NCBI GenBank assembly: GCA_963744715.1
Contig: CAVUUR010000002.1
Span: 65,665 to 129,664, forward strand
DNA: 64,000 nt
Direction: 5' to 3'
DNA from: an uncultured bacterium
GTDB taxonomy: Bacteria > Babelota > Babeliae > Babelales > JACPOV01
The notes beneath the pieces were generated by a model. It was not told the DNA's origin, searched no databases, and saw nothing but the letters and a program-made list of their open reading frames with translations. Positions 37,997 to 64,000 of this stretch are shown piece by piece. Within the stretch, counting starts at the first letter, position 1. Every line of letters begins with the position of its first letter. The translations under genes and the position numbers were made by a program.

Positions 37997-39885
37997 ATGT
38001 CAAAAGAAATCACACGCGCACATCAATTTCGCCATATAAAAACAATGTCGATAGATGATCAGCATCTTACGCTCAATCCAGAGCAACAACAAGAGTTAGC
38101 AAGTCTTTATGAAGGCGCCTTAAGCACCTTAAAACAAGGTAAAATTATTGTCGGCAAAGTAATTAAAGCTGATAATGATGGCGTTCTCGTTGATATTGGC
38201 TACAAATCAGATGGCCTAATTCCAGCCTATGAATTTTCTGAACATGAAATTAAAAAATTTGCCCCAGGAACAGAAATCGAAGTAATTCTTGATGAACTTG
38301 AGAATGTCGATGGCAATTAACACTTTCTTATGAAAAAGCAAAAGCACTCGCGCATGGGATGCTATCATGAAACTATTTGAAGAAGGCAAGCCGGTTGAAG
38401 GTGTTGTTACTCATAAAGTTAAGGGTGGCTTGAGCGTTGATATTGGTATTCCTGCATTCTTGCCAGGATCTCAAGTTGATGTACAACGTGTTACTGATTT
38501 TGATCAATTTGTTGGTCAAACAATTACTGCGTATATTATCAAAGTTAATCAAAAACGTGGCAACGTTATTATTTCTCGTCGTAAATATCTTAATGAACAA
38601 CGCTCAGAAGTTCGCAAGAAGATTCTTGATACGCTTACAAGATGGCCAAGTTATTCAAGGTGTCGTTAAAAATATCACCAACTATGGTGTATTTATTGAT
38701 ATCGGCGGCGTAGATGGCTTGTTACATATCACTGATATGACATGGGGCCGCATTGCGCATCCAAGCGAATTAGTAAAAATTGGTGATACAATTACCGTTA
38801 AAGTTCTTTCATTTGATAAAAATAATGAAAAAATATCTCTTGGGCATGAAACAACTTGACTGGAAATCCATGGGAAAAAGTTGCTGAAAATATTCAAGTT
38901 GGCTCTAACGATTAAAGGTAAAATTTCAAGCATCACCGATTACGGCTTGTTTGTTGAAGTTGCAAAAAGGCGTTGAAGGCTTGTGCATATTTCTGAAATT
39001 TCATGGACCGATCGTATTACTGATCTTACATAAACATTACAAAGTTGGCGATGAGATCGAAGCATTGTTGTTTCTTTTGATAAAGAAAATCGCCGCATGT
39101 CATTCAGCATCAAACAACTTGAAAAAAATCCATGGAAATCAGTTAGCTGAAAAGTTCAAAGTTGGCCAAAAAATCAAAGGCAAAATTAGCAACATTACTG
39201 ATTTTGGTATCTTTGTTCAATTGATGCCAGGCATTGATGGACTTAGTTCATATTTCTGATCTTTCATGGACTGAACATATTAAGCATCCAGCTGATATTT
39301 ATCAAAAAAGGCGATGAAGTTGAAGCGGTTATTATTGATATCGATAAACAAAAGAAAAAAATTTCATTGGGCATTAAACAACTGACACGAAAATCCATGG
39401 GAAAATATTGAACAAAAATATCCAGTTGGTCAACTGATTGAAGGTGAAGTTTCCAAAATCACTGATTTTGGTGCTTTTGTTAAACTTGCCAACTGGCATT
39501 GAAGGACTTGTCCATATTTCTGAACTTTCTGATCAATAATGTAGAAAAAGTTGAAGATATTCTTAAAGTTGGCCAAAAAGCACAATTCAGAGTTATTAAA
39601 GTAAGCAAAGAAGAGCATAAACTTGGTCTCAGCTTAAAAGAAAAAGAAGCTCCTGCTGAAGAACAACCACAACGCACACGTGAAAAAGAAACTGCACCTA
39701 AGCAAACAGCTCCAGCTAAAGAAAAACCAGCAAAAAAACAATCCGCTGGTAAAACAAAATCTGAAGAACAAAGCGGTGGTGGTAGCCGACCTAAATCTAT
39801 GCTACAAATAGAACTCGAAAAACATGCTGCGCGTCAAAAAACGAGCGATGAAGAAACAACCGATAATGAAAATCAGGAAGGATAA
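37997..39885 (+). pseudogene. rpsA: 30S ribosomal protein S1, reading frame interrupted by about 16 single-base indels (probably sequence errors rather than decay)
   Basis: Hand translation across frames recovers consecutive canonical S1 (OB-fold) repeats, e.g. [91 protein letters not shown] and [29 protein letters not shown]. The ORF track shows fragments in all three frames. Confidence 0.85.
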
Positions 39886-39890
39886 ATAGC

Positions 39891-40298
39891 ATGGTAGAAA
39901 AAACATTAGCTATTATTAAACCTGATGCCGTTGCCAGAAATATTTCTGGCAAAATTATTGATCTGATAGAACAAAACGGTTTTTCGATAGTTCGTATGCA
40001 AAAAATGCATTTAACCAAGAAGCAGGTTGAATCATTTTATGACATTCACAAAGAACGTCCCTTTTTCGGTGAAATGGTAGGAACCATGACAGCAGGACCA
40101 GTAGTTGTTATGGTCCTTGAAAAAGAAAATGCTATACAAGCATGGCGTGATTTAATGGGTGCTACCGATCCTAAAAAAGCAAATCCTGGCACCATTAGAA
40201 AACTATTTGGCATTGATATAGGAAAAAATTCAACACACGGTTCTGATTCACCTCAAACCGCAATGATTGAAATAAAGCAATTTTTCCCAGAATTATAA
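39891..40298 (+). CDS. ndk: Nucleoside diphosphate kinase (cytoplasmic copy)
   Basis: 135 aa, TLAIIKPDAV and catalytic NSTHGSDS. Confidence 0.9.
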   Translation: MVEKTLAIIKPDAVARNISGKIIDLIEQNGFSIVRMQKMHLTKKQVESFYDIHKERPFFGEMVGTMTAGPVVVMVLEKENAIQAWRDLMGATDPKKANPGTIRKLFGIDIGKNSTHGSDSPQTAMIEIKQFFPEL

Positions 40299-40353: not shown

Positions 40354-40875
40354 ATGCGCTTAAAAACATGGTTTTTAATTTTTTTAGCATTCGGTATTTT
40401 TTATGGCGGGTATCGTTTTAGCAATCTGATTCATCATACACCCGCATCAAAAAAACCCATTAGTACCTCAGATAAAACGGTAGCAATTATAAAACCTGGT
40501 GCCGTTGCAGCACATAATACTGGTAATATTATTCACATGATAGAACAACATGGATTTACCATCGTTGCACTAAAAAAAATTACCTTCACGCAACAGCAAG
40601 CTCAAAAATTTTATGCAGCACATAAAGATCGTCCGTTTTTTAATGATTTGATAACGAGCATGACATCGGGTCCAAGTATCGTTATGATTTTACAAAAAGA
40701 TAAGGTAATTCCAGCATGGCGTGATGTAATGGGCGCTACTGACCCCAAAAAAGCGAATCCTGAAACTATCCGTGCACTTTTTGGCACTGATGTAACCAAT
40801 AATGCAGTACATGGTTCTGACTGGCCAGAATCTGCTGCAATTGAAATACATCAGTTATTTCCTGAGTTATCCTAG
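40354..40875 (+). CDS. Nucleoside diphosphate kinase paralogue with N-terminal signal-anchor extension
   Basis: 173 aa. Extra N-terminal MRLKTWFLIFLAFGIFYGGY, then a complete NDK domain (VAIIKPGAV, NAVHGSDW). Confidence 0.8.
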   Translation: MRLKTWFLIFLAFGIFYGGYRFSNLIHHTPASKKPISTSDKTVAIIKPGAVAAHNTGNIIHMIEQHGFTIVALKKITFTQQQAQKFYAAHKDRPFFNDLITSMTSGPSIVMILQKDKVIPAWRDVMGATDPKKANPETIRALFGTDVTNNAVHGSDWPESAAIEIHQLFPELS

Positions 40876-42564: not shown

Positions 42565-43334
42565 TTACTCCCATCGTTCTGCATATTCTTTAATAATTCC
42601 AGAGCATTTAAGGTATTTACGGCTTGCTGATTCGTCAATCAAAGAACTATTATCTTTTTTGAGTGCAATCCCAACTCCTTGTACTTGATCTTCGGGTGCA
42701 AGCGCCACATCAAGAATTTGTATTTCCGGATATTTTTGTTTAAATTTTTTTGCAATTGCCGGTTCTACAAAAGCGGCATCCGCTTTGCCATATCGGATAT
42801 TCAACAATGCATCATCTATTTTTTCGGTAGATTTTTTATCAATAAAAGAATAGTTGCTCAACACTGCATCTTGTGATGATGCCGGCTCAACACAGACCGT
42901 CATTCCTCTCATATCATTAATAGATTTGATTCCTTCAGGAATTTTTTCCCAAAATAGAACGGGTAGGAAAGCGTCATTTCACCGTGATAACGAATCATAG
43001 CAATCTTTTTAATGCGATCTTGTGTAATTGATAATCCCCAAATAATTGCATCAATAGATCCTTGTTCTAACGCTATAAACAGTGCCGACATTGAACCGAG
43101 ATCGTTGAGTATCAATTGTTTTCCCATTTTTTTGGCAAGAGCGTTGGCAACATCAATATCAAAACCTTCATATTCCCCTTGTGCATTAACACTAACAAAA
43201 GGTGCATAATCTGCTACGGTGCCAACAACCAATGATTGTGCATCGCGTTGAGGCGCGCGCACATTTTTAACTACTATGTAGCTACATAACAGGCCGGCTA
43301 CTACTATTATAAAAATACTATTGTTACTTATCAT
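42565..43334 (-). pseudogene. Polar amino-acid ABC transporter substrate-binding protein, frameshifted
   Basis: Two pieces join as ...IWGLSITQDRIKKIAMIRYHGE..SYP | LFWEKIPEGIKSINDMRGMTVCVEPASSQDAVL... after a 1-nt shift near 42950. The C-terminal end is also suspect. Confidence 0.6.
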
Positions 43335-43831: not shown

Positions 43832-45436
43832 TTAGTTATTTTCTTTATCAGAGAACGTTGTCAACCTTTTAAATATTTCGCTCTTATCGGGCATAAGTTC
43901 ATAACGTGGAAACTCATCTTCCTGTTTTTCTTGTTTATAGATATTGCCCCGCATTATGTATTTATTTGCAATATTTTGGCATAATTGCGTATCATCCGCT
44001 TCATGCAATCCAAAATTCGATTCTTTTTTTAAACGATGATCAATTCTTGAACAATCGCTCAATCCTCGATCAGAATACTGCTTTGCTAATAGTGCCCATC
44101 TTTTTTTTAATTGCTCTATTCGTTTTTTATCAAAGGCAGCCTGATTCTCGCATAGCAGTAAATTATTTTTGAAGGGCACTCTTATATCTTGCGTCAATTT
44201 ATCTAATAACGAAAAAACTGTTGTTATAGTTAGTGCCCCACAACCCATACTTAGAGGACATAGGCCACATAAACCTATTAAGAAGAATACACCTGGATTT
44301 TCTATTCGTTCGACCATAATGTTCTTAACAATGTTCACACCATTAATTGCAAGAAATGATCCCGCTACCAATGAACCTCCATTGATGATAACATCTAACA
44401 TAATACCATTATTTTTTTGTATTACTGATGGCTCCAAAATAGATTTCAAGTTTTCTATTTGATCTTGTGTAAGATTATTATTACTTACATCAATGAGGCA
44501 ATTTTTAGGAGTAAATAAACGCCAATTTGAACCGGATATTTTTTTTATGCAATTATTGCTGAGTGATAACTCTGAACCACTTTTTAATGATAAAATGTCT
44601 TTAGTTGATAATGTTTCTATGCGATTATGATTTGCATCAATTGCCATAAGCTTCGGGAATACTTCTTTTAAATCAATAATATTAAGCTCTCTAATCTCGT
44701 TATGCGCAATATCTATTACTTCTATGGCCTTTCTTCGCTGTTCTATATAATGCCTTTCTTCACGCAATTTATTTTGATCTTCATTGCCAATACTTTCTAA
44801 TGATTTAAGATTTAATCCGGAAAGGCACAACCATCCAATATAATTTTTTCTACCTGATACGATAAAACCATTATTCGAATACTTAACTGGAAATATCCCC
44901 CTTACATTGTTGCTCGAGAGAAGTTTGTATTGCTCGTATTTAAGATCTCTTGTATCAATTTTTTGTACCAGTTGCTCAAATAATTCTTGGCGAATTGATT
45001 GTGGCGCTGCAAGATCATCACTCAACAAAGCAAGTTTTTCTAATTGTTCAACAGGAAGTTTTTCGCTCGATTTACCGTTTTTTATCATTTCTACAAGATT
45101 TTTTACTGTTTTAGTATCGCATGAATGGGAAACACATTTTAAATCTAATGCTTGCACCGAACAAACTTGCTGAGGAATTTGGCAAAAACCCTTAAGTGTC
45201 TTGCAACGGTTAACCACGGCGCGGTCAACTTTTATATCACCATCTGCGCATTGCAATATAATATCTGTAGGAACACTCTCAACCTTTGTTTGTATCTGCG
45301 CATAAGAATTCATGAGCGCATGCAACTCCTGCGTTGTTCTTTTCGGATGTTCTCGGCCAACGATCATTGCTTGAAGGTTTGGCACAGCAAACAGGTAGAA
45401 ACATACGGGCAAGCAAAGAAATAATTTTTTTATCAT
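43832..45436 (-). CDS. Eukaryote-like protein: signal peptide + POZ (BTB/Skp1-like) segment + leucine-rich repeats + C-terminal TM region
   Basis: DIILQCADGDIKVDRAVVNRCKTLKGF resembles the BTB/Skp1 N-terminus. About 4 LRRs (IDIAHNEIRELN, IDANHNRIETLS, LSLSNNCIKKIS, IDVSNNNLTQDQ). Hydrophobic FFLIGLCGLCPLSMGCGALTITTVFSLL. Confidence 0.55.
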   Translation of the reverse strand: MIKKLFLCLPVCFYLFAVPNLQAMIVGREHPKRTTQELHALMNSYAQIQTKVESVPTDIILQCADGDIKVDRAVVNRCKTLKGFCQIPQQVCSVQALDLKCVSHSCDTKTVKNLVEMIKNGKSSEKLPVEQLEKLALLSDDLAAPQSIRQELFEQLVQKIDTRDLKYEQYKLLSSNNVRGIFPVKYSNNGFIVSGRKNYIGWLCLSGLNLKSLESIGNEDQNKLREERHYIEQRRKAIEVIDIAHNEIRELNIIDLKEVFPKLMAIDANHNRIETLSTKDILSLKSGSELSLSNNCIKKISGSNWRLFTPKNCLIDVSNNNLTQDQIENLKSILEPSVIQKNNGIMLDVIINGGSLVAGSFLAINGVNIVKNIMVERIENPGVFFLIGLCGLCPLSMGCGALTITTVFSLLDKLTQDIRVPFKNNLLLCENQAAFDKKRIEQLKKRWALLAKQYSDRGLSDCSRIDHRLKKESNFGLHEADDTQLCQNIANKYIMRGNIYKQEKQEDEFPRYELMPDKSEIFKRLTTFSDKENN

Positions 45437-54484: not shown

Positions 54485-55753
54485 TTAATGAGAGGTAGTA
54501 AGATTACTCGTTCTTTTTTGGCGATGATAACTGATAGCAAAATGATGCGCATAATCACGTAAAGCAATAAAAAATGCACCAATATCAGTCTTTATATCAA
54601 GCACGGTTCCCTCGGGTATTTGGTCACTAAATAATCGCTCTTCGCGCTTTGCTAAACTTACAATGATTGCAGCAGGTAAAATTGCTTTTATCGCATTACG
54701 CTGACCTTTTCCACCATCAATAACAATTAAATCAGGAACTGGTGTATTTTTGTAGCGACGGGCAACAATTTCTTGTAATGCTGCATAATCATTTTGCTCA
54801 ACAATTGTTTTAACGGCAAAACGTCTAAAATTATCTTTATCAGGAATACCATGAGCAAAACGTATGCAAGAACCTACAATGGCATTACTTTGAAAATGAG
54901 AAATATCAAAACAATCAACGGTAATAATTGGTTTTTCAAGATTAAGAAATTTTTGCAATTGTCCTGCTAACGCATAATTTGGTTCACGATTGTGATGAAT
55001 CGGTGTCGTTGCTAAAAAAATATCACGTTCATATTTTTTTTCTGAAAATCCAGTTTTTAATGTTTCAAAAATAGTATCTAAATTGTGTAAATAGTAGGTC
55101 AGGTGCTGTGATTTTTCAAAATCTAATTGTTTATTAAGCGCTTTTATTTCTGCTTTAATATCGTTAAGAAATTTTTTGTGATTTCCCTGCAATGCATTCA
55201 TGGCCAACATTAACCTAAATTGATAACTGCTTTGGTCAAAATTTTCCATACAAGTGCCTGAACATAAATTCATATGATAGCGTAAACAACCACCCGGAAT
55301 TTTTTTGTTGCATGTCTCAAGTTTAAAGGTCTTTAATAAATAATGATAAACAGCTCGTGCCTGTTTTTTATATAAAAAGGGACCAAAATAAGTACCCTTT
55401 GTTTTTTTACTGCGCACTAATTGTAATGAAGCAGAATCTCCACTCGTAAAAACAAGATAAACAAACGGATTGCCACTTTTGAGCAGCACATTAAATTTTG
55501 GTTGATGTTGCTTAATTAATTGTGCTTCTAATAGTAATGCCTCATTTTCTGAATGCGTTACAATATAATCAATAGTAGCATACTCATCAATAAGGGCCTT
55601 TACTTTCCAATCACGTTCCTGTTTTTTAAAATATGAACTGACGCGTTTTTTTATTACTTTTGCTTTGCCAACATAAATAATAGCGTTAGTACTATCTTTA
55701 AAAAGGTAAACGCCCGATAATAACGGCAATGTAGTAAGTATCGTAGTATCCAT
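54485..55753 (-). CDS. uvrC: Excinuclease ABC subunit C, short form without recognisable C-terminal (HhH)2 domain
   Basis: GIY-YIG N-terminus (GVYLFKDSTNAIIYVGKAKVIKKRVSSYF), UVR-like helix pair, and an endonuclease domain (CFDISHFQ...VIDGGKGQ). Only 422 aa. Confidence 0.75.
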   Translation of the reverse strand: MDTTILTTLPLLSGVYLFKDSTNAIIYVGKAKVIKKRVSSYFKKQERDWKVKALIDEYATIDYIVTHSENEALLLEAQLIKQHQPKFNVLLKSGNPFVYLVFTSGDSASLQLVRSKKTKGTYFGPFLYKKQARAVYHYLLKTFKLETCNKKIPGGCLRYHMNLCSGTCMENFDQSSYQFRLMLAMNALQGNHKKFLNDIKAEIKALNKQLDFEKSQHLTYYLHNLDTIFETLKTGFSEKKYERDIFLATTPIHHNREPNYALAGQLQKFLNLEKPIITVDCFDISHFQSNAIVGSCIRFAHGIPDKDNFRRFAVKTIVEQNDYAALQEIVARRYKNTPVPDLIVIDGGKGQRNAIKAILPAAIIVSLAKREERLFSDQIPEGTVLDIKTDIGAFFIALRDYAHHFAISYHRQKRTSNLTTSH

Positions 55754-55874: not shown

Positions 55875-57359
55875 TTATTTTTTATTAATATATGTGAATG
55901 CGCTCATAGCTCCGGTTATACCTTGAGAAGCTCCTAAAAATGCTTGTTTATATCGATGATGAGTAATATCACCTATAGCGAAAATGCCTTTAGTAGAAGT
56001 TTCTTGAAGAGGGTTAGTTTTGACATATCCATCTTCAAGCTCAAGCCCTAGATTACGTGCAAGTTCATTGTTTGGTGTACTGCCTAAACCTAGAAAAACT
56101 GCATTACGTCCTCCTAATGTAAATTCAACTTCTTCTTTATCCCCATTAATTTTTTTACTAATTTTTACATCAGTTATAGTTGAATCATTTCCCTTAATTT
56201 CTTTAATATTAGCGTTCTTTAATACTACAATTTTATGTTTTTGTTGCCCATTATACTGCTCAATCAGCTCTTTTGTGCTACCATTAATTATATCTTTTTC
56301 TTGAATTACCAAGGTAACTCTTTCTGCCACCTGGCCGAGATGTTGCAATGTTTCATCCACATTATGTTGGCCCCAGACAATAACTTTTTTGCCTTTATAA
56401 GAAGCTGCATCGCATAATGCACAAATGGCTACACCTTTGCCCCAATATTTTTCTATTCCTGCAATAGTTGGCTTAACTGGACTTCTACCCGTTGCCAAAA
56501 TAACGCTTTTAGAGAAATATTGCTTACCATTCTTCGAGATCAATGTAAGCGGAAAAGTATTTTTATCAATCTTTACAATAGTATCCTCATTCACATCTGC
56601 GCCAGCCTGCATAGCCTGATTGTACAAATCAAACGATAATCTTGATCCTGATGGAGCTAAAGAAGCCCCAGGCCAATTGTTTACCGATTGTACTCCAGCT
56701 AAACTACTTTTTGCTTGCTTACCAAATAATACTGTTTTTAAATTATTTCGTGCCGCATAGCTTGCCGCAGAACAACCGGCAGGGCCAGCACCAATAATCG
56801 CAACGTCTACAGGCCTCTCTAAAGAAACACCAAAGTCATTTTTAGCTGCAATATCCAGTAATTCATCAAGAGTACTCTTCGTGCTCTGGAAAGTTATTTT
56901 ATTAGCACCAGATTGCGTTTTAAACATTTTATGATTGTTAATGTATGCAACCGTTGGATAAGAATGACAGGGTATTCCTAATTGATTAGCTGTATCAACG
57001 TCAATAATCTTAATTGTAAGTTGGTCTTTATAGCTGTTTTGATGCTCTTTAACTATGGGCTCGACTCTATCGCATGCTCTGCAACCTTTTGCTTTTACCA
57101 GGTACATACCTATTTTTTCTGGGAATTTTTTATCCATTAAAGCTTTTTGTCTTGCTTTCTCTTCTCTGATTGCAAAAATAAGGAAAGCTGCTAACCCAGC
57201 CGTTACCCCTCCACAAATAGCCATTTGAGTCAACGTTGATCGATCAAAATTGAGCCAACTAGCCTGTGAACGAGAATAACCATACATCGATAATACGTTA
57301 GATGAACTTATTCCTATTAATAAGCTCAAAATAATAATTGAAAAATTTTTTATATTCAT
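55875..57359 (-). CDS. Membrane-anchored thioredoxin-domain / thioredoxin-reductase-like flavoprotein fusion
   Basis: Two N-terminal hydrophobic segments. Trx-like CRAC (CxxC). FAD motif VAIIGAGPAG, redox CALCD, C-terminal GIFAIGD. Start set at ATG 57359; the ORF track uses TTG 57392. Confidence 0.75.
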   Translation of the reverse strand: MNIKNFSIIILSLLIGISSSNVLSMYGYSRSQASWLNFDRSTLTQMAICGGVTAGLAAFLIFAIREEKARQKALMDKKFPEKIGMYLVKAKGCRACDRVEPIVKEHQNSYKDQLTIKIIDVDTANQLGIPCHSYPTVAYINNHKMFKTQSGANKITFQSTKSTLDELLDIAAKNDFGVSLERPVDVAIIGAGPAGCSAASYAARNNLKTVLFGKQAKSSLAGVQSVNNWPGASLAPSGSRLSFDLYNQAMQAGADVNEDTIVKIDKNTFPLTLISKNGKQYFSKSVILATGRSPVKPTIAGIEKYWGKGVAICALCDAASYKGKKVIVWGQHNVDETLQHLGQVAERVTLVIQEKDIINGSTKELIEQYNGQQKHKIVVLKNANIKEIKGNDSTITDVKISKKINGDKEEVEFTLGGRNAVFLGLGSTPNNELARNLGLELEDGYVKTNPLQETSTKGIFAIGDITHHRYKQAFLGASQGITGAMSAFTYINKK

Positions 57360-57404
57360 AAAACATCCCCATTTAGCCTTAAAATAATACAATTATATAA
57401 TATA

Positions 57405-57432
57405 ATTATATCTGCAATGAGGTATTTGTCAA
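57405..57432 (-). promoter_or_regulatory. Sigma-70-like promoter for the Trx-TrxR fusion gene
   Basis: On the minus strand: TTGACA (57432-57427), 16-nt spacer, TATAAT (57410-57405). Confidence 0.5.
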
Positions 57433-57595
57433 CTGCCACTACCCTTTTGAGATGAAAATACAGGCCGGGCAAAAGGCTGTTAAGACAAATTATAGGGACA
57501 GAAATTGCTACAAATGTCTTAAAGCCTTAGGGGAAACCATGATATAATAGTCAAAAAATAGTACAAAATCTGTAATAAATCTAACAACGCCGTTC

Positions 57596-60500
57596 TTAGC
57601 CGCCCCAGCTTTCTTGACTGGCACCCGCCTCTTCTGTTCTTTTTTGAATACTTTGCTGCTGACCTACCGGAACAAGAGTGGTTGGCGTAGTGGTAAGGAC
57701 CGTGCTAGAATGATTCGACTTTTCTCCAGTATCTGCCGTTGTTGTTTTTTGCGTCGGGGCTGCAAGTGGCGTTGATGACGGCGCATTTTGTGCTTCTTGC
57801 GTTACTGATACATAGAAGGTTGTTGAGTTATCAATCGCTTGGGCTAATGTTGGCGGTAATTGCCCAAAACTTTGCTGATAAATTCTTAGCGAATCCGATG
57901 CTCGATGCCCTTTTTCTACCGGTTCTGTACTTTTTTTATCATATTCATTACCGGTGACCAAACTTCGTATACGAGATACCGTTGCATCATAAGGAGCGCC
58001 AATTAATTCATTATTACGTGCATCAGTTGTTACTACGACAAAATAATCATAGAGCGTATTGCCTTTGGCATCTTTTACCGGCTTATTTTGTTTATCATGT
58101 AATTCAGGAGCAAGAGAAATTGCTTTATAAATAAATTGTCCGTTTTTAATTTCATCAGAACTGGTTGGTTGAATTTCAATAGCACCAAATGCAAAAGGCC
58201 CCATAAGAGTACTCATATAATTTTTCTGTAGCATATCTAATTTCTTTTCAAGATCGTCAGTTAATGGGCCGTATTGCTTTATGTAAACATCAAGTACATT
58301 TTCGCAGGTAGTTAAATAAGATCCATTTTGATCAAATGCTCTACTCGTGATTAAACTAATCATTGCATTAGGCGAAGTAGTGGGTGAACTGCCAATATGT
58401 TGTATGGTATATTGGTTGGTAACACGATCGATTGAGCTTGTTCCTAAAACAACGTAATCATCCATTGGTTGTCCATTAGCACCATGCAACCCTGTTTTTT
58501 GCGTGGTGTAAATATACTGTCCCTTAAGAATTTGTACAATAGAAACTGCTTGCAGTGGTATAGTACCCAAAGAAGGGTTTGTTAATGCCGCTAAATTAGT
58601 TCGCGCCGCTATTTCCCTTTCCTGTTCATCGAGCAGACCCAATGACTTGCGCACCGCTGGAACCTCTTTTATTGCTAATGCAGGTGTTACTACATCATAT
58701 TCAATGGAAGCCCCCGCAGAAATAATTCCTATTGTTTTTCCAGAAGTTTCTGAAACAGCAATTTCTTGGCCTCCGGGTTTTTCATCACCTTCTTTCCAAA
58801 CTCGTACTATGAGCTTGGTTCCTTGCAGTTGCATATTCATTCTATACCAAGTACCAACATCAAATTGAGGACCTTTCAAAGGCGGATTAAGCCAACCCAA
58901 GCCTTCATGCTCATAAAAATTGAGCATGACAGGACTATCTTTTTCTTCTTTTTTGTACACAACCATTTTAGCCAAGTGCGCACTATTGATGTTCGCTTTG
59001 CCCGTTTTTTTAATGGCTTCAACATCAACAGGGATACCACCAAAATATAAACCTATATAAAATTCATTAAGAACGTATAGTGCTTGCCATCGTACTTCTA
59101 CCTCGCTAACTGCGTTATCAAGAACTATTGTCTCTTTTTGATTGAACCAGAATTTACGAGGGGCCTTACTACTAACCTGTTTATTATCTTCCTGGCCAAA
59201 TGCTAATGATGGATATACTGCAATTTCCTGGCTAAAAGCATTACGGCCTTTATTGTACAACGGAAACCCTTGTGATGGGTTAAGGTTAAGTACTCCGGTT
59301 TTAAAGCCATATAATGATCCAACATCTGCAGGAATTAATCCGGTTGAATCGGGAGTGATCTGTGGTAATAAATATTGTCCCAAATAATATGATAATTGTT
59401 CTTCGGTATTCAAAACATAGTCTGAAAGAAAATTTTGATAAAATCCTATGTTTCGTTTTTGATTAATAACTTGTGCATCATATTTTTTAGTTAATTCATC
59501 AGCCCAAGCATTTTTTGCATTCTCAGAAATTATTTTATTATTATTAACAAACACCTGATAGTCAGCAACGAACTTTTTCTCTTTTGCTAATTTTTCTGCC
59601 GCTCGCTCATCATTCTGGTATGACCCATATTCTTGAAAGATTTGTGGCCCAACGGTCATGGCTAATAATGGCAAGGCTGCACCATCAGTTGCTATTACTG
59701 CACCAATTAACAAACCGGTTGTTACGTGCGACTCAATAAGTCTGCGATGATTTGCTATCCATTGACTTGCATCCTGCACTGCGTTAGCACCAGCCTGCCA
59801 ACCAAAAATATCAAAAATACCAGCAAGCGCATTGAAAATTCCTTTGGAAACGTCAATTAAAATATCGGTTATCATACTAACTAAATAAGCGGCACATTTA
59901 ATAAGCGCTTTCAATGCATCAACAAAATTTTGAACTATAAAAGTTGCAACATTTAATAATGATGTTACGACATCATAGGCTAAGCTGTTCAGACTATTAA
60001 CAATATCTTGTCCAAACGCCTGCCAATCTCCCGTTTTAGCCCCAATAATTGAATCTGAAATTACCGTTGAAGCCAAATTAACGGCATCAGTACCCAATCT
60101 AATTAATCCACCGCCAGCAGAAACAGCAATATGACCCTGATTTGCATAAAAATTAATAACAACATCAGTAAGCGATTCTATCACCCCTTCTATATCACTA
60201 CCCAATTTTGGATCTCTGGAAATTTTTGCGAATATTTCACCAACAATACTCGCAGCTCCTTTAGTAAAATCCTTGGCTACTGCTGCGGTATCATCAATAA
60301 CGTTTTGAGCATCGGTAATTGATCTATTAATATCTGCTGCAACTTCATCTTGTAATTTTTTTGAAAGATCAATAAGTTCTTGCCCCTTATGAGGATCTAT
60401 GGCACCTATAATTCCTGCGGCACCGGCTGCTCCTATTGCTTCAGCCTCATCAAGGGCTGTTTTGCCCACATCCTGAATGCCTTGTAATATATCCTGCCCT

Positions 60501-61837
60501 GTTTTTTTAATATCGTTCCAGCTACCGCTCAACCAAGAACCAAAATCTTGTACAACGACCTTTGCATTTCCTTTTCCAGCAGAAGTTGTTGTATCGCTTG
60601 AGGTAGCAGCTTGCGCAGCTGCCTCTTTAAAATTTTTCAAAAGGGCTGCAAGATCTTCAAGATAAATAGCATCTTCACTTTGGTATAATAATAGATGCGG
60701 TGCTGGTTGGGTATTATTTTTACCAAGTACACTCATAGTTTGTTTAATATGTGCATCATCAAACAAATAATACGTTTGTGCCTGCAAATTTTTAAGCATA
60801 GCTATACACAACATTTTTTCTTGCAGAAGCGGTTTTTTTAATAATGCTACATCTATTGGTAATTTTTTGTTTAAGGCTTGCTGTGCCAATGTTCCTAAGC
60901 TCGTTGTTTGTGCTAATGAAATTAATTGATATAAACCGGTAGCTTCAACCTCCATTGCTGCCGAATAGGTTTTAACAAGGTCTATTTGACCGCTTTTTTT
61001 ATCAACAAATGGTTCCCATGCTATGCTTTGTCGTATAAAACGAGCACGCACTTGTTCCGTTACTATTAAATGCAATCGCGCGAATTCTCCTGAATTACGA
61101 ATTTGTATAAAATCAGGATGATAATAAGCAACTTCGATGTTGGGAATAAACCTAAATATTGTTTTTTCGATATCTACAATTGATTTGAGCAACGCATTAT
61201 CTTGTCTAAAAGTATCCAAAACCGAATACTGAATATATTCTTGCCAAAAAGGACTTGCAATAATCATTTCCGGAGTAATGTCTATAGTTTGCCAAAATGA
61301 AGTTTTTATAAGATCACTCCACGATGCAGCAACAATTGATCCTTTAACATCATCCCAATCGGGAGCAGCTTTACTAATTGCTACGATTAACTGTTGCAAT
61401 CCACCAGCAACAGAACTTGCTTTATCAATGAGCCCCTTCCAAGATTTAGCTTCAAGTACCGAAGTAACATCAATATTTTTTTGTCGCGCATAACCAGCAA
61501 TATGCGCAGCTACTTGTAATTTAGTAATATATTCAAGGTAAAAATAAAAATTTTTAATGTATCGCACCAATTCAGGATCAACTTGCAACCCCTCTTTTCC
61601 GTATAAAGCATCTACCGCTTTTTCATTAATAGAAGTTGTTGGATACGGATTTGATTTTGGAGTTCCGGTACTAACAAAGACAGGATTAAATAATGCCTGC
61701 GCGGTATGCTTAACATCATCAAATCTCTGTTGCACATCTGCTGGCTGCAAAGAATTATTTTTACTTTGTGATTCTTCAGCAATAATTGTTATTGGTATAT
61801 ATAAAAATATTATCAGGGAAATAAATAATCGCTTCAT
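57596..61837 (-). CDS. Giant (1413-aa) secreted protein of unknown family: Gly/Ala-rich hydrophobic helical core, jelly-roll-like module, duplicated C-terminal module, Thr/Pro-rich tail
   Basis: Uninterrupted 4.2-kb ORF with signal peptide MKRLFISLIIFLYIPITIIA. Shares modules with the upstream 622-aa protein. Confidence 0.8.
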   Translation of the reverse strand: MKRLFISLIIFLYIPITIIAEESQSKNNSLQPADVQQRFDDVKHTAQALFNPVFVSTGTPKSNPYPTTSINEKAVDALYGKEGLQVDPELVRYIKNFYFYLEYITKLQVAAHIAGYARQKNIDVTSVLEAKSWKGLIDKASSVAGGLQQLIVAISKAAPDWDDVKGSIVAASWSDLIKTSFWQTIDITPEMIIASPFWQEYIQYSVLDTFRQDNALLKSIVDIEKTIFRFIPNIEVAYYHPDFIQIRNSGEFARLHLIVTEQVRARFIRQSIAWEPFVDKKSGQIDLVKTYSAAMEVEATGLYQLISLAQTTSLGTLAQQALNKKLPIDVALLKKPLLQEKMLCIAMLKNLQAQTYYLFDDAHIKQTMSVLGKNNTQPAPHLLLYQSEDAIYLEDLAALLKNFKEAAAQAATSSDTTTSAGKGNAKVVVQDFGSWLSGSWNDIKKTGQDILQGIQDVGKTALDEAEAIGAAGAAGIIGAIDPHKGQELIDLSKKLQDEVAADINRSITDAQNVIDDTAAVAKDFTKGAASIVGEIFAKISRDPKLGSDIEGVIESLTDVVINFYANQGHIAVSAGGGLIRLGTDAVNLASTVISDSIIGAKTGDWQAFGQDIVNSLNSLAYDVVTSLLNVATFIVQNFVDALKALIKCAAYLVSMITDILIDVSKGIFNALAGIFDIFGWQAGANAVQDASQWIANHRRLIESHVTTGLLIGAVIATDGAALPLLAMTVGPQIFQEYGSYQNDERAAEKLAKEKKFVADYQVFVNNNKIISENAKNAWADELTKKYDAQVINQKRNIGFYQNFLSDYVLNTEEQLSYYLGQYLLPQITPDSTGLIPADVGSLYGFKTGVLNLNPSQGFPLYNKGRNAFSQEIAVYPSLAFGQEDNKQVSSKAPRKFWFNQKETIVLDNAVSEVEVRWQALYVLNEFYIGLYFGGIPVDVEAIKKTGKANINSAHLAKMVVYKKEEKDSPVMLNFYEHEGLGWLNPPLKGPQFDVGTWYRMNMQLQGTKLIVRVWKEGDEKPGGQEIAVSETSGKTIGIISAGASIEYDVVTPALAIKEVPAVRKSLGLLDEQEREIAARTNLAALTNPSLGTIPLQAVSIVQILKGQYIYTTQKTGLHGANGQPMDDYVVLGTSSIDRVTNQYTIQHIGSSPTTSPNAMISLITSRAFDQNGSYLTTCENVLDVYIKQYGPLTDDLEKKLDMLQKNYMSTLMGPFAFGAIEIQPTSSDEIKNGQFIYKAISLAPELHDKQNKPVKDAKGNTLYDYFVVVTTDARNNELIGAPYDATVSRIRSLVTGNEYDKKSTEPVEKGHRASDSLRIYQQSFGQLPPTLAQAIDNSTTFYVSVTQEAQNAPSSTPLAAPTQKTTTADTGEKSNHSSTVLTTTPTTLVPVGQQQSIQKRTEEAGASQESWGG

Positions 61838-61854
61838 TACAATCCATTCAGTTG

Positions 61855-63723
61855 TTAACTGGTAGTTTTTTGCATCGATATTAAATGCTGAGTAAATGAA
61901 TTTATTTGCTTTTGTGTATATTGTAATTGCGTCGGTTGCTTAATAGTAAAAGATGCCTGACACCCAGATGCCATAAAACCTATTCCTGCTGATATAAAAA
62001 CATACGGATCAAGATTTTCCATGGTCTTGTTAAAGAGAGCAACAGTTGTTTGAGTACCATCCTTATTTTCTTCTTTTTTTGAAAGTGAGCACTCTACCGT
62101 ATTAGCACCAGTGGTTATCTTTATAATATAGGTAACTGGATTTTTCTTCAGCGTGATAGCTTCTTGGGCGGGTAACGTAAACAAACGGGTATCTTTGTCA
62201 TTCATAATCTGCTCCAGAGGAGAAACAATTTCTTCGGTATGCTCCTTGGTAGAACTTGATAATTTTTGTTGAGCAAAGGCAAAATCTATCGTGTGAGAAG
62301 ATCCCCCTTGTGTTTTTTCTTCTATTCCATAAAGACCACATAAGCGATATTGCCAAATCCGTTCCGGATCTCCCGATATCCAATGGGCACGATTACATAA
62401 TACGCCCATAAAAAATGGATACGTAACATTTATGAGCGTGCACTCTACTTCGATTGTATATCGTAATTGACCTGTAGCGTATTCAGTAAAAATACTATTA
62501 GCTGCCGGATCATCAGTAAATAACGAAGCATTCGGATCTTGTTTTTTCTGCCATAGGGGCGGTAATGGAAATGGTGCTAATCCGTATTGATAAAAACTAT
62601 TATGCAAAGCATCAAATTCCCAATCCCCAGAAGCTACCTGATATATATTATACCAGGGATAACCATCAGATGGCGTCAGCATTGCAGCATGAGCAAAATA
62701 TTGATCATAAATAATCGGCGCCGCTAAGGCTCGTGTAATTGGTTGCGCTAGGTTTATTGATTTATTCATATAAACAATTTCTTGCTGCAATAGCGCATTA
62801 TTTTGATTATAAGCATCACTCAGGATTTTTTGGGAACCTGTAAAAGCATTCTCAATACTTGTTATAATATCTTCTTGATCTTTTTTTAACTTCTGTTGAA
62901 ACGTTTCCCAGCTTGAAGTAATTTCGTTTTGTTTTTTTGTTGCTTGTTCATATACAATACGATCGGCATCATCTTCCCATTGTATTGCTAAAGAGCCTCC
63001 CGCTAAAATCAGGGCTTGTAATCCCATGCTAAGAATTAACCCTATTGATTGCACTTCAGTTTGTGCAATTTTTTTTGCTCGTTTTTTTGTTTTTTCAATA
63101 ACTTCAGGATTATCCCAAAAATCAATTAATACAGGAAATTTTTTATCTTTTTTTAGCTCAAAAAAGAGTAATAGTTTTTTGTAATGTAGCAAAATATGCT
63201 CTCGTTCCCATGCGATATAATCAAGAACTTGTTGTGCATGTGTATTCAATGAATGTTTTTGAGGAGCCTTAAATAATGATGATATGGTAGTTGCAACACT
63301 ACTATACCATTCTTTAATAGTTTTAGCAGAACGTTCCAGCACTGATTCATTGGTCGGTAAATATTGAAGATATGACGAAAGATGTTCAATTTGCTGCGCA
63401 AAAAGAAATTTTTTATAAAATAACGTTTCCGGAACCCGTTCCTGACGATGATCAATCTCCTTTATGGTATTTTGAACCTGTTCAAGTTGCTCTTTAAGAT
63501 TCTGCATAACCTCAAAAGCAATCTGATGCAATTCGTCGTTTGATGCATTTACAAGCATAAAAAACAATTGTTGTATATTCGTTACTTGGTCGGGAGGATT
63601 ATTAAGACCTTGTTTACCGTAAATATGTTCTACCATAGTATTAATGTGCGCAGCAGAATTTTGATCTTGTTCTACTGCTAGAAGATTAAGAACAAAAAAA
63701 AATAAAAAAAATACATAGAACAT
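61855..63723 (-). CDS. 622-aa secreted protein, shorter paralogue of the 1413-aa protein
   Basis: Signal peptide MFYVFFLFFFVLNLLA. HIYGKQGL N-terminal module, hydrophobic segment then acidic stretch, beta-rich C-terminal half. Confidence 0.75.
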   Translation of the reverse strand: MFYVFFLFFFVLNLLAVEQDQNSAAHINTMVEHIYGKQGLNNPPDQVTNIQQLFFMLVNASNDELHQIAFEVMQNLKEQLEQVQNTIKEIDHRQERVPETLFYKKFLFAQQIEHLSSYLQYLPTNESVLERSAKTIKEWYSSVATTISSLFKAPQKHSLNTHAQQVLDYIAWEREHILLHYKKLLLFFELKKDKKFPVLIDFWDNPEVIEKTKKRAKKIAQTEVQSIGLILSMGLQALILAGGSLAIQWEDDADRIVYEQATKKQNEITSSWETFQQKLKKDQEDIITSIENAFTGSQKILSDAYNQNNALLQQEIVYMNKSINLAQPITRALAAPIIYDQYFAHAAMLTPSDGYPWYNIYQVASGDWEFDALHNSFYQYGLAPFPLPPLWQKKQDPNASLFTDDPAANSIFTEYATGQLRYTIEVECTLINVTYPFFMGVLCNRAHWISGDPERIWQYRLCGLYGIEEKTQGGSSHTIDFAFAQQKLSSSTKEHTEEIVSPLEQIMNDKDTRLFTLPAQEAITLKKNPVTYIIKITTGANTVECSLSKKEENKDGTQTTVALFNKTMENLDPYVFISAGIGFMASGCQASFTIKQPTQLQYTQKQINSFTQHLISMQKTTS

Positions 63724-63725
63724 AA

Positions 63726-64000
63726 TTACGCTCCTACATCCGGTGGCAATGATGTATCAGGTGGCGTTGTTTGTTTAATTTGCTTGCGCAATGCAGTAAT
63801 ATAATCTTCACATTCTTCGCATATTTTTTTTGTAGTGCTACTTTCTTCCATTAATTTAGCTTTAATAGCTGCATTGGCAATAATGCAGCGGATACAAGGA
63901 TCTAAAATTTCATAATCATCGAAAACAGGATCGAGTAAAACAAAAAAATCTCCTAAACACGCGCGCACCATTAACAATATTCCCTGTGGGGAATTAAGCC
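63726..64000 (-). CDS. Small 4-Cys (CxxC...CxxC) protein, first gene of the operon; N-terminus may lie beyond the window
   Basis: CIRC and CEEC are separated by 21 residues. The frame is open to the window edge (the ORF track starts at TTG 63977; ATG at 63971). Its stop lies 2 nt before the start of the 622-aa gene. Confidence 0.5.
   Translation of the reverse strand, partial: LNSPQGILLMVRACLGDFFVLLDPVFDDYEILDPCIRCIIANAAIKAKLMEESSTTKKICEECEDYITALRKQIKQTTPPDTSLPPDVGA

Follow-up and report, generated by a model that had tools for sequence, protein, structure and literature searches.

A three-gene operon at the end of the window

We analyzed a 64,000-nt stretch from an uncultured member of the Babelales (GenBank assembly GCA_963744715.1, contig CAVUUR010000002.1, positions 65,665 to 129,664; hereafter the window), at the end of which three consecutive minus-strand genes, designated A, B and C, encode exported proteins. 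The bacterium belongs to Candidatus Dependentiae, a widespread phylum whose members live as obligate intracellular parasites of protists and of which only a few have been cultured. Conservation of the A-B-C operon extends throughout the sampled part of the phylum, Chromulinivorax-type genomes included, and its more than 2,500 residues of exported protein lack a family assignment, which places it among the largest stretches of dark matter in genomes of this small size. It may bear on how Dependentiae build a reduced envelope largely devoid of lipopolysaccharide, by what means they divide, and how they get into and out of host compartments.

Gene B spans 61855-63723 (622 aa) and gene C spans 57596-61837 (1413 aa), while the frame further upstream, A, ends at 63726. 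The intergenic spacing is exactly 2 nt between A and B and 17 nt between B and C. The A-B junction reads ...GGAGCG TAA TT ATG, with GGAG ~8 nt ahead of the ATG of B and this ATG 2 nt past the A stop codon, and the ATG of C lies 17 nt past the stop codon of B. No terminator-like site was found between genes within the A-B-C block. On the 3' side of C, the operon is bounded by a 203-nt gap (57393-57595, minus strand) containing a perfect sigma-70-type promoter, TTGACA-16-TATAAT at 57432 to 57405, that serves the downstream gene. Given the 2- and 17-nt gaps, the lack of an internal terminator and the separate promoter of the next gene, A, B and C are very likely co-transcribed, as a preliminary description of this DNA had proposed from the coordinates and spacing, which proved exact. 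Several relatives have 4-nt start/stop overlaps among the triad genes, as judged from their coordinates, which suggests translational coupling. The G+C content is ~36% across the whole window, and that of the triad equals its surroundings.

Gene A is represented in the window by its 3' end only (63726-64000, minus strand), comprising the last ~90 codons and the stop. The frame runs uninterrupted up to base 63998 and is open to the window end, and the 91 residues inside the window align end to end with the C-terminus of 458-560-aa proteins that occupy the same position in related loci. A is therefore a ~500-aa gene cut by the window end, and the "small 4-Cys protein" of the preliminary description is an artefact of this cut. 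The alignment contains invariant Cys, Gly and Asp columns; the window part has five Cys, four of them conserved, within a C-terminal region of the form RAC...DPCxxC...CxxC that is followed by a Pro/Gln-rich tail. Whole-profile comparisons of A with B and of A with C revealed no similarity. In one related locus (L013:6272-8067), gene A is split into two overlapping open reading frames (ORFs), reflecting a local frameshift or an assembly error in an otherwise intact triad.

Signal-peptide-like N-termini are present in A, B and C and in their orthologues, including the ~460-560-aa orthologues of A, in agreement with the cleavable-looking signal peptides first noticed in B and C. For A, B and C, no significant match came from Pfam, NCBIfam or PHROGs, nor from sequence searches of the PDB, whether these started from a single sequence or from a profile (for A, no match in Pfam, PHROGs or PDB). 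When each orthologue was scanned separately against Pfam and NCBIfam, no family recurred across orthologues, and the divergent giant relatives of C, which reach 2716 aa, contained no Pfam domain. A literature search found no paper describing these proteins. The early impression that the large proteins belong to no recognisable family is thus borne out by the Pfam, NCBIfam, PHROGs and PDB sequence searches.

Domain architecture of proteins B and C

We identified 39 homologues of B, all unnamed or annotated as "hypothetical"; most are ~600 aa long, and a few are shorter (390-560 aa), some of these probably being fragments. Protein B begins, behind its signal peptide, with an all-helical N-terminal domain (residues 18-220; 63064-63672; all features of B and C lie on the minus strand), which opens with a YGxxGL motif and was modelled by AlphaFold2 (AF2) with a predicted local distance difference test (pLDDT) score of ~88-96 over most of its length. 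This domain is followed by a conserved hydrophobic segment (residues 221-250, ALQxxxMAGGSxAxQW; 62974-63063; pLDDT <50), a long helix or stalk (residues 251-335; 62719-62973; modelled helix 253-323, pLDDT 50-60) and a concanavalin-A-like beta sandwich (residues 336-600; 61924-62718; pLDDT mostly 80-97). The AF2 model was built from an alignment of 35 sequences and has a mean pLDDT of 79; in it the helical domain is confident over residues ~30-220, the hydrophobic segment (223-255) is left unmodelled and the sandwich extends over 350-600. In the Foldseek search of this model against the PDB, the sandwich alone was matched (probability 1.0, E down to 2.5e-4), the matched structures being the GH43 C-terminal domain, CBM66, the thrombospondin C-terminal domain, GH16 and galectin-like domains, including coronavirus spike N-terminal domains. 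Two of the related loci bear on the gene model of B: in one (L010:7884-9683) gene B is split into two ORFs by a local frameshift or assembly error, the triad being otherwise intact, and another (L001) is an independent assembly of the same organism in which B differs by one residue.

In protein C, an N-terminal peptide (residues 44-74, LFNPV...NPYPTTSINE) precedes an all-helical N-domain (75-410) that also starts with YGxxGL; together they occupy 60608-61708, contain invariant columns and are modelled with pLDDT ~80-94. Further along lie an acidic Gly/Ala/Ile/Val-rich amphipathic helical region (435-636; 59930-60535), a hydrophobic hairpin unit (637-732; 59642-59929), a helical stalk (733-830; 59348-59641) that is kept family-wide, and a conserved linker with a concanavalin-A-like sandwich (831-1062; 58652-59347; pLDDT ~75-90) bearing the invariant motifs WFNQKE and YEHEGxGW. 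The C-terminal part consists of two homologous alpha/beta modules (1095-1231 and 1232-1345; 57803-58555; the first with pLDDT ~80-88) and a Thr/Ser/Pro/Gln-rich tail (57599-57802) that ends in a conserved acidic motif, SIQxRTxxASxxxx[FW]GG. Mapping with domain hidden Markov models (HMMs) gave one collinear plan across the C family: N-domain, core, hairpin, stalk, linker, jelly roll, module 1 and module 2. The AF2 model of C, covering residues 40-1239 and based on an alignment of 23 sequences, has a mean pLDDT of 64; it is confident for the N-domain (~70-410), the sandwich (~900-1060) and the alpha/beta module (~1070-1239), and the long helices at ~435-830 have pLDDT 25-55. Foldseek matches to the PDB fell on the sandwich only (CBM66, galectins, neurexin LNS, GH16 and PL7; probability 1.0), with target-normalised TM scores of 0.45-0.58.

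The core of C (435-740) contains 13.7% Ala, 9.8% Gly, 11.8% Ile and 8.5% Asp and has an isoelectric point (pI) of 4.4, a net charge of -16 and a positive grand average of hydropathy; it is acidic in all 22 orthologues (pI 4.1-5.6). Matches of this region to apolipoproteins and designed helical bundles (E 0.04-0.8) were rejected as compositional. The two C-terminal modules are homologous to each other (hhalign probability 99.4%, E = 8e-22). Three features of C given in the preliminary description were thus confirmed: the Gly/Ala/Ile/Val-rich amphipathic helical core, the duplicated C-terminal module and the Thr/Pro/Ser-rich tail. The longer C orthologues (P0011, P0012, P0015 and P0017-P0022) carry an additional ~70-residue module with conserved Cys (DSCxYDDxxNxVxC...FQNVKK...YDLYA) within their first ~100 residues; C of the window lacks it.

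The guess that the beta-rich regions are LamG- or concanavalin-type jelly rolls was correct for both proteins, since each yielded a confident AF2 sandwich with Foldseek matches in the PDB (E 2.5e-4 to 1e-3). At the sequence level, profiles of Laminin_G, Gal-bind_lectin, GH16, DUF1080 and the like gave no match, even at E <= 1, to the window proteins or to 22 + 35 orthologues. We considered whether the jelly roll might be catalytic (GH16- or PL7-like) and set the idea aside, the invariant YEHEG and WFNQKE not fitting known catalytic signatures. Within C, mean pairwise identity is highest in the linker and jelly roll (0.50-0.55); the N-terminal peptide and N-domain reach 0.45-0.50, the peptide LFNPV...NPYPTTSINE being also among the best-conserved parts. 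Because the jelly roll and linker are the best-conserved region and hold invariant charged and aromatic motifs, the head of C may bind a conserved ligand rather than evolve in an arms race.

We also compared B and C with each other, as they had been called collinear paralogues with three common modules. BLASTP found the N-terminal motif only (VEHIYGKQGL... versus VDALYGKEGL..., E = 0.007), and the whole-profile hhalign probability was 0.4%. By segments, hhalign gave 35% over 39 columns (E = 4e-4) for the N-terminal motif and 8.7% for the jelly rolls, which nevertheless belong to the same fold class and have some top Foldseek matches in common; the hydrophobic and acidic-coil regions gave nothing significant. 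The profile of the B N-domain hits only a ~27-residue motif at the start of each C-type N-domain (independent E 1e-3 to 2e-2), and accordingly twice in C-type proteins with two N-domains. Of the modules originally proposed as common, the short N-terminal motif (~27-39 residues) and the jelly-roll fold hold, whereas the hydrophobic/acidic-coil correspondence and any wider detectable homology do not. What B and C have in common is a domain plan, a single short motif and a fold class, and common ancestry is plausible.

Conservation of the locus and its neighbours

Close homologues of C number 23 and measure 1413-1684 aa. A profile of C residues 40-1095 searched against 1.84 billion representative proteins retrieved 213 clusters at 50% identity, with lengths to 2716 aa, and 122 of these had E <= 1e-30. 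The few named members of the B and C families are all from Candidatus Dependentiae, Babeliales or Candidatus Chromulinivorax, and all are annotated as "hypothetical protein". Nine genome loci were recovered, eight from Babeliales/Dependentiae metagenome-assembled genomes and one labelled "uncultured Pseudomonadota". Judged from this distribution of sequences, the A-B-C operon is specific to Candidatus Dependentiae (TM6, Babeliales and relatives).

The order and strand of A-B-C were identical in all related loci with upstream DNA (12/12), and B-C was present in two loci cut by the contig end. No confident family match emerged, signal peptides are present and the triad is strictly syntenic; on these three grounds, the proposal that the genes form a so far unplaced module stands. 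In the same 12/12 related loci (L002-L004 and L006-L014), a divergent M23 peptidase gene lies directly upstream of A (e.g., L002:5225-6469, minus strand). This adjacency is known from the related loci, the window of the present genome ending before that position. The M23 peptidases are 45-82% identical among loci, and their best similarity, below the curated NCBIfam cut-off, is to peptidoglycan endopeptidases of the Pgp3, MepM and ShyA type. In several loci, the M23 gene is followed by a gene for a ~190-aa protein with a weak PilO-like match.

The outer flanking genes vary among loci, although UvrC and ClpB are often found downstream and form a stable block with the triad. Identities to the window proteins in the same loci were 69-74% for ClpB, 47-64% for UvrC and 31-51% for C; the triad thus evolves faster than UvrC and ClpB but is conserved over its full length. 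From the conserved synteny and these identities, the triad is a core locus, present once and inherited vertically, whose evolution outpaces that of housekeeping enzymes. These data also bear on the idea that the genes are a phage or mobile-element remnant, for example giant proteins resembling tape measures or tail fibres. The proteins are indeed long and helix-rich, lectin-like domains also occur in phage tail proteins, and the matches in BFVD are all to such jelly rolls. However, PHROGs gave no match, the BFVD matches are confined to the jelly roll with none tape-measure-like, no phage genes lie nearby and the neighbours are cellular housekeeping genes, while the chromosomal position is kept across deeply diverged genomes and the G+C content does not stand out. 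We consider a phage origin effectively refuted.

Several further observations were made in the window. The gene just 3' of C (55875-57392, minus strand) encodes a 505-aa fusion of N-terminal hydrophobic segments, a thioredoxin domain and a thioredoxin-reductase-like flavoprotein; such a fusion was found 3' of C in this genome only, the related loci having other genes there. The window contains UvrC as one 422-aa ORF (54485-55753, minus strand), which was called as 50 + 334 aa in the independent assembly (L001:7226-8493). A coding sequence with S1 domains (ribosomal protein S1-like; 37997-39885, plus strand) is broken up into five or more ORFs that together use all three frames, pointing to a frameshifted rpsA pseudogene or to assembly indels. 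It is followed by tandem nucleoside diphosphate kinase (NDK) genes (39891-40298 and 40354-40875, plus strand); in the second (Pfam NDK, E = 6e-50), an additional hydrophobic, signal-like stretch at the N-terminus suggests that the enzyme is exported. A solute-binding-protein-like gene (42565-43334, minus strand) is apparently split into the abutting ORFs 42909-43334 and 42565-42912 by a possible frameshift. Finally, 43832-45436 (minus strand) encodes a 534-aa candidate for host interaction, which has a signal peptide, matches leucine-rich repeats weakly and contains hydrophobic stretches in its C-terminal part.

Probable membrane anchoring, a proposed envelope role and relation to known systems

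The hairpin unit of C consists of a moderately hydrophobic helix, a short loop and a hydrophobic helix, and is present in one copy in the window protein and in two copies in the Chromulinivorax type. In the window it comprises helix a (~641-680), an HRR-containing loop and helix b (706-730, TTGLLxAAVxATDGxALPxLAMTVGPQ). The Chromulinivorax-type subfamily, to which the L012 protein and a protein from Candidatus Chromulinivorax belong, carries its N-domain twice in tandem. Where window-type proteins have their core, it has at least two extremely hydrophobic segments (Kyte-Doolittle 2.4-3.7 over 19 residues), and long stretches rich in Ala, Thr and Gly come after these. An HMM built from residues 600-745 of window-type C matched each of the Chromulinivorax-type proteins twice (hmmsearch, independent E 1e-6 to 1e-13), and the conserved TTGLL...TDG...AMTVGPQ helix aligns onto their strongly hydrophobic helix. 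The membrane-embeddable segment that the preliminary description saw in C is thus supported by homology to genuine transmembrane units. Very hydrophobic helices behind a Sec signal peptide act as stop-transfer sequences and are retained in the bacterial inner membrane. By this homology, C would be held in the inner membrane of the bacterium through its hairpin. A hairpin, single or doubled, does not change the side on which its flanks lie, so that the two large parts of C, N-terminal and C-terminal, would both be periplasmic.

B also looks like an exported protein held at the membrane surface, through a helix or a lipid. This is suggested by the lipobox of one orthologue and by the conserved hydrophobic segment with its charged flanks, Lys/Arg-rich before (mean 4.7 K+R) and acidic after (mean 4.9 D+E). 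The orthologue in question, from L012, starts with the canonical lipobox LLAGC (MKKYLFFIILFLLAGC), is without the N-domain and aligns to window B residues 201-612. Most other B orthologues have AxA-type signal peptides with the YG/FGxxGL motif almost directly after them, and the end of the signal peptide of window B (MFYVFFLFFFVLNLLA/VEQ) contains no lipobox of the form [LVI][ASTVI][GAS]C.

These anchors weigh against the possibility, raised in the preliminary description, that the triad is a released pore-forming toxin or translocator set, in which B and C would be soluble, the helical core of C would insert into a host membrane and the jelly rolls would bind a receptor. Vip3, Cry and botulinum toxins combine a helical membrane-active domain with jelly-roll receptor-binding domains, and the membrane-active helical region and lectin-like jelly rolls of C resemble such modular toxins; the signal peptides and the acidic, amphipathic core fit as well. 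However, no sequence or fold match to any toxin family was obtained. For ClyA and the HBL-type alpha-pore-forming toxins (Hbl, Nhe and AhlABC) in particular, there was no Pfam or PDB sequence match and none was among the top Foldseek matches, the core of C being modelled with low confidence. The strongly hydrophobic helices of the relatives (Kyte-Doolittle up to 3.7) would serve as stop-transfer anchors after a Sec signal peptide and cannot be reconciled with a soluble, secreted protein. In addition, B is a lipoprotein in one relative, and the locus is strictly vertical, single-copy and beside housekeeping genes. Taken together, the transmembrane units, the lipoprotein B of L012 and the vertical locus paired with an M23 gene favour retention in the bacterium's own envelope, and we regard a secreted toxin or translocator as very improbable.

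We therefore put forward, tentatively and at a little under an even chance, that A-B-C is a complex resident in the envelope of the bacterium itself; a link of this complex to peptidoglycan is more doubtful. All three proteins would be exported through Sec. C would be rooted in the inner membrane via its central hairpin, with two large halves facing the periplasm, one comprising the N-domain and acidic amphipathic region and the other the stalk, the concanavalin-A-like head, the two alpha/beta modules and the flexible tail with its end motif. B may follow the same plan in miniature (helical N-domain with YGxxGL, hydrophobic helix, stalk and concanavalin-A-like head) and would be membrane-associated via its hydrophobic helix or, in some lineages, a lipid anchor. 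A would be a soluble periplasmic partner with a disulfide-capable C-terminus. The lectin-like heads may bind a conserved glycan or partner, for which peptidoglycan or another envelope component are the best candidates, and the complex would probably cooperate with the divergent M23 peptidoglycan endopeptidase beside A. Its role would then lie in the architecture of the envelope, or in its remodelling, in bacteria whose Gram-negative envelope is degenerate. In Babeliales, most genes for lipopolysaccharide synthesis are missing, and the envelope and the division apparatus are both degenerate (PMC4776705); Chromulinavorax cells contain dense, dark-staining material in the periplasm (PMC6561590). 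Because of this literature and the invariant M23 neighbour, peptidoglycan or envelope remodelling is our leading specific guess. The analysis yields parts that can be tested: the transmembrane hairpin, two lectin-like heads with invariant motifs and the constant M23 neighbour.

Several points weigh against this proposal. The window-type hairpin is only moderately hydrophobic: helix b has a mean Kyte-Doolittle value of 1.56, helix a contains charges and the connecting loop is not positively charged, which left the positive-inside rule uninformative, so that membrane insertion in this organism rests on homology. AF2 confidence is low across the whole central region of C, and neither A, nor either N-domain, nor the C-terminal modules received a fold assignment. 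The M23 adjacency could be mere inherited gene order in small, stable genomes. Lectin-like heads together with an obligate intracellular life fit host-glycan binding equally well.

This last point leads to a surface-displayed adhesin or entry complex, in which the proteins would be envelope-anchored while the heads and C-terminal modules reach the surface, for example via type II secretin homologues, and bind glycans of the protist or phagosome. In a further step, the acidic amphipathic region of C would become membrane-active in the acidifying food vacuole and aid attachment or escape. The appeal of such a complex is that these bacteria get from food vacuoles into the cytoplasm although no injection systems are known for them: their obligate intracellular life begins with phagocytic uptake, and Chromulinavorax is found in the host cytoplasm by 3 hours post infection (PMC6561590). 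Receptor binding is a typical task of concanavalin-A-like domains, the core of C is both acidic across the 22 orthologues and hydrophobic, the Thr/Pro/Ser-rich tail is typical of surface proteins, and two GspD copies are present in all TM6 genomes (PMC4776705). On the other hand, Pfam and NCBIfam searches found no domain that would carry the proteins through the outer membrane or anchor them in it (no beta barrel, no autotransporter, no sorting signal), and the transmembrane units of the relatives would keep C in the inner membrane. Moreover, the putative binding domains are the most conserved parts and occur in one copy per locus, whereas host-binding families are usually fast-evolving and expanded. 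We consider an adhesin of this kind unlikely, though the main rival to the envelope-resident complex; a role in host contact is conceivable. A bolder version holds that the triad is the main trans-envelope "spike" of the phylum, rooted in the inner membrane, with stalked lectin heads and an acid-responsive region that attach to and open, or fuse, the food-vacuole membrane. If true, this would explain how bacteria without a type III, IV or VI secretion system enter the protist cytoplasm, but we rate it as decidedly unlikely.

We also compared the triad with known systems. Type III translocators and chlamydial Inc proteins resemble C in having a helix pair; however, the proteins here have classical N-terminal signal peptides, and no type III system has been reported for the phylum (PMC4776705), the genome as a whole not having been examined here. 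Searches of Pfam and NCBIfam found no autotransporter, two-partner-secretion or S-layer domain (beta barrel, TPS or SLH), and the C terminus of C is a low-complexity tail with a short motif. ClyA and the tripartite toxins are soluble helical bundles of ~35-45 kDa with a hydrophobic head, whereas the proteins here are 3-4 times larger. Vip3, three-domain Cry proteins and the clostridial neurotoxins with NTNH share with the triad the succession of a helical region, a jelly roll and further C-terminal modules, as well as two neighbouring genes with one domain plan; they differ in that there is no sequence or structural match, relatives of the triad have transmembrane anchors and a lipoprotein B, and the triad locus is core rather than accessory.

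With the concanavalin-A-like superfamily, B (~336-600) and C (~896-1062) have in common a curved two-sheet antiparallel sandwich, which tips a long helical stalk as in thrombospondin and laminin. The identity is 8-14%, however, no Pfam model matches and the remainder of B and C is unrelated. None of the motifs WFNQKE and YEHEGxGW (C) and GDPERIWQYR (B) corresponds to a known signature of sugar binding, Ca binding or catalysis. Membership in known systems thus failed, with only this generic fold in common; what is new here is the family, and not a demonstrated new mechanism.

Two further systems offer parallels in organization. The FtsEX-EnvC complex and the Csd/Pgp cell-shape complexes of Helicobacter and Campylobacter are membrane scaffolds by which M23/LytM peptidoglycan peptidases are positioned or regulated; the triad would likewise comprise membrane-anchored proteins with large periplasmic helical parts, and it adjoins an M23 gene. 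FtsX, EnvC, Csd5 and Csd7 have no sequence relationship to the triad proteins, the link here being gene adjacency alone, and the triad proteins are several times larger and have lectin-like heads. The P1/P40/P90 (MgPa) adhesin operon of Mycoplasma is an analogy only, since it is unrelated in sequence and fold and belongs to bacteria with a single membrane. In both cases, a genome-reduced obligate parasite devotes a three-gene operon to very large, lineage-specific, membrane-anchored exported proteins without outside homologues.

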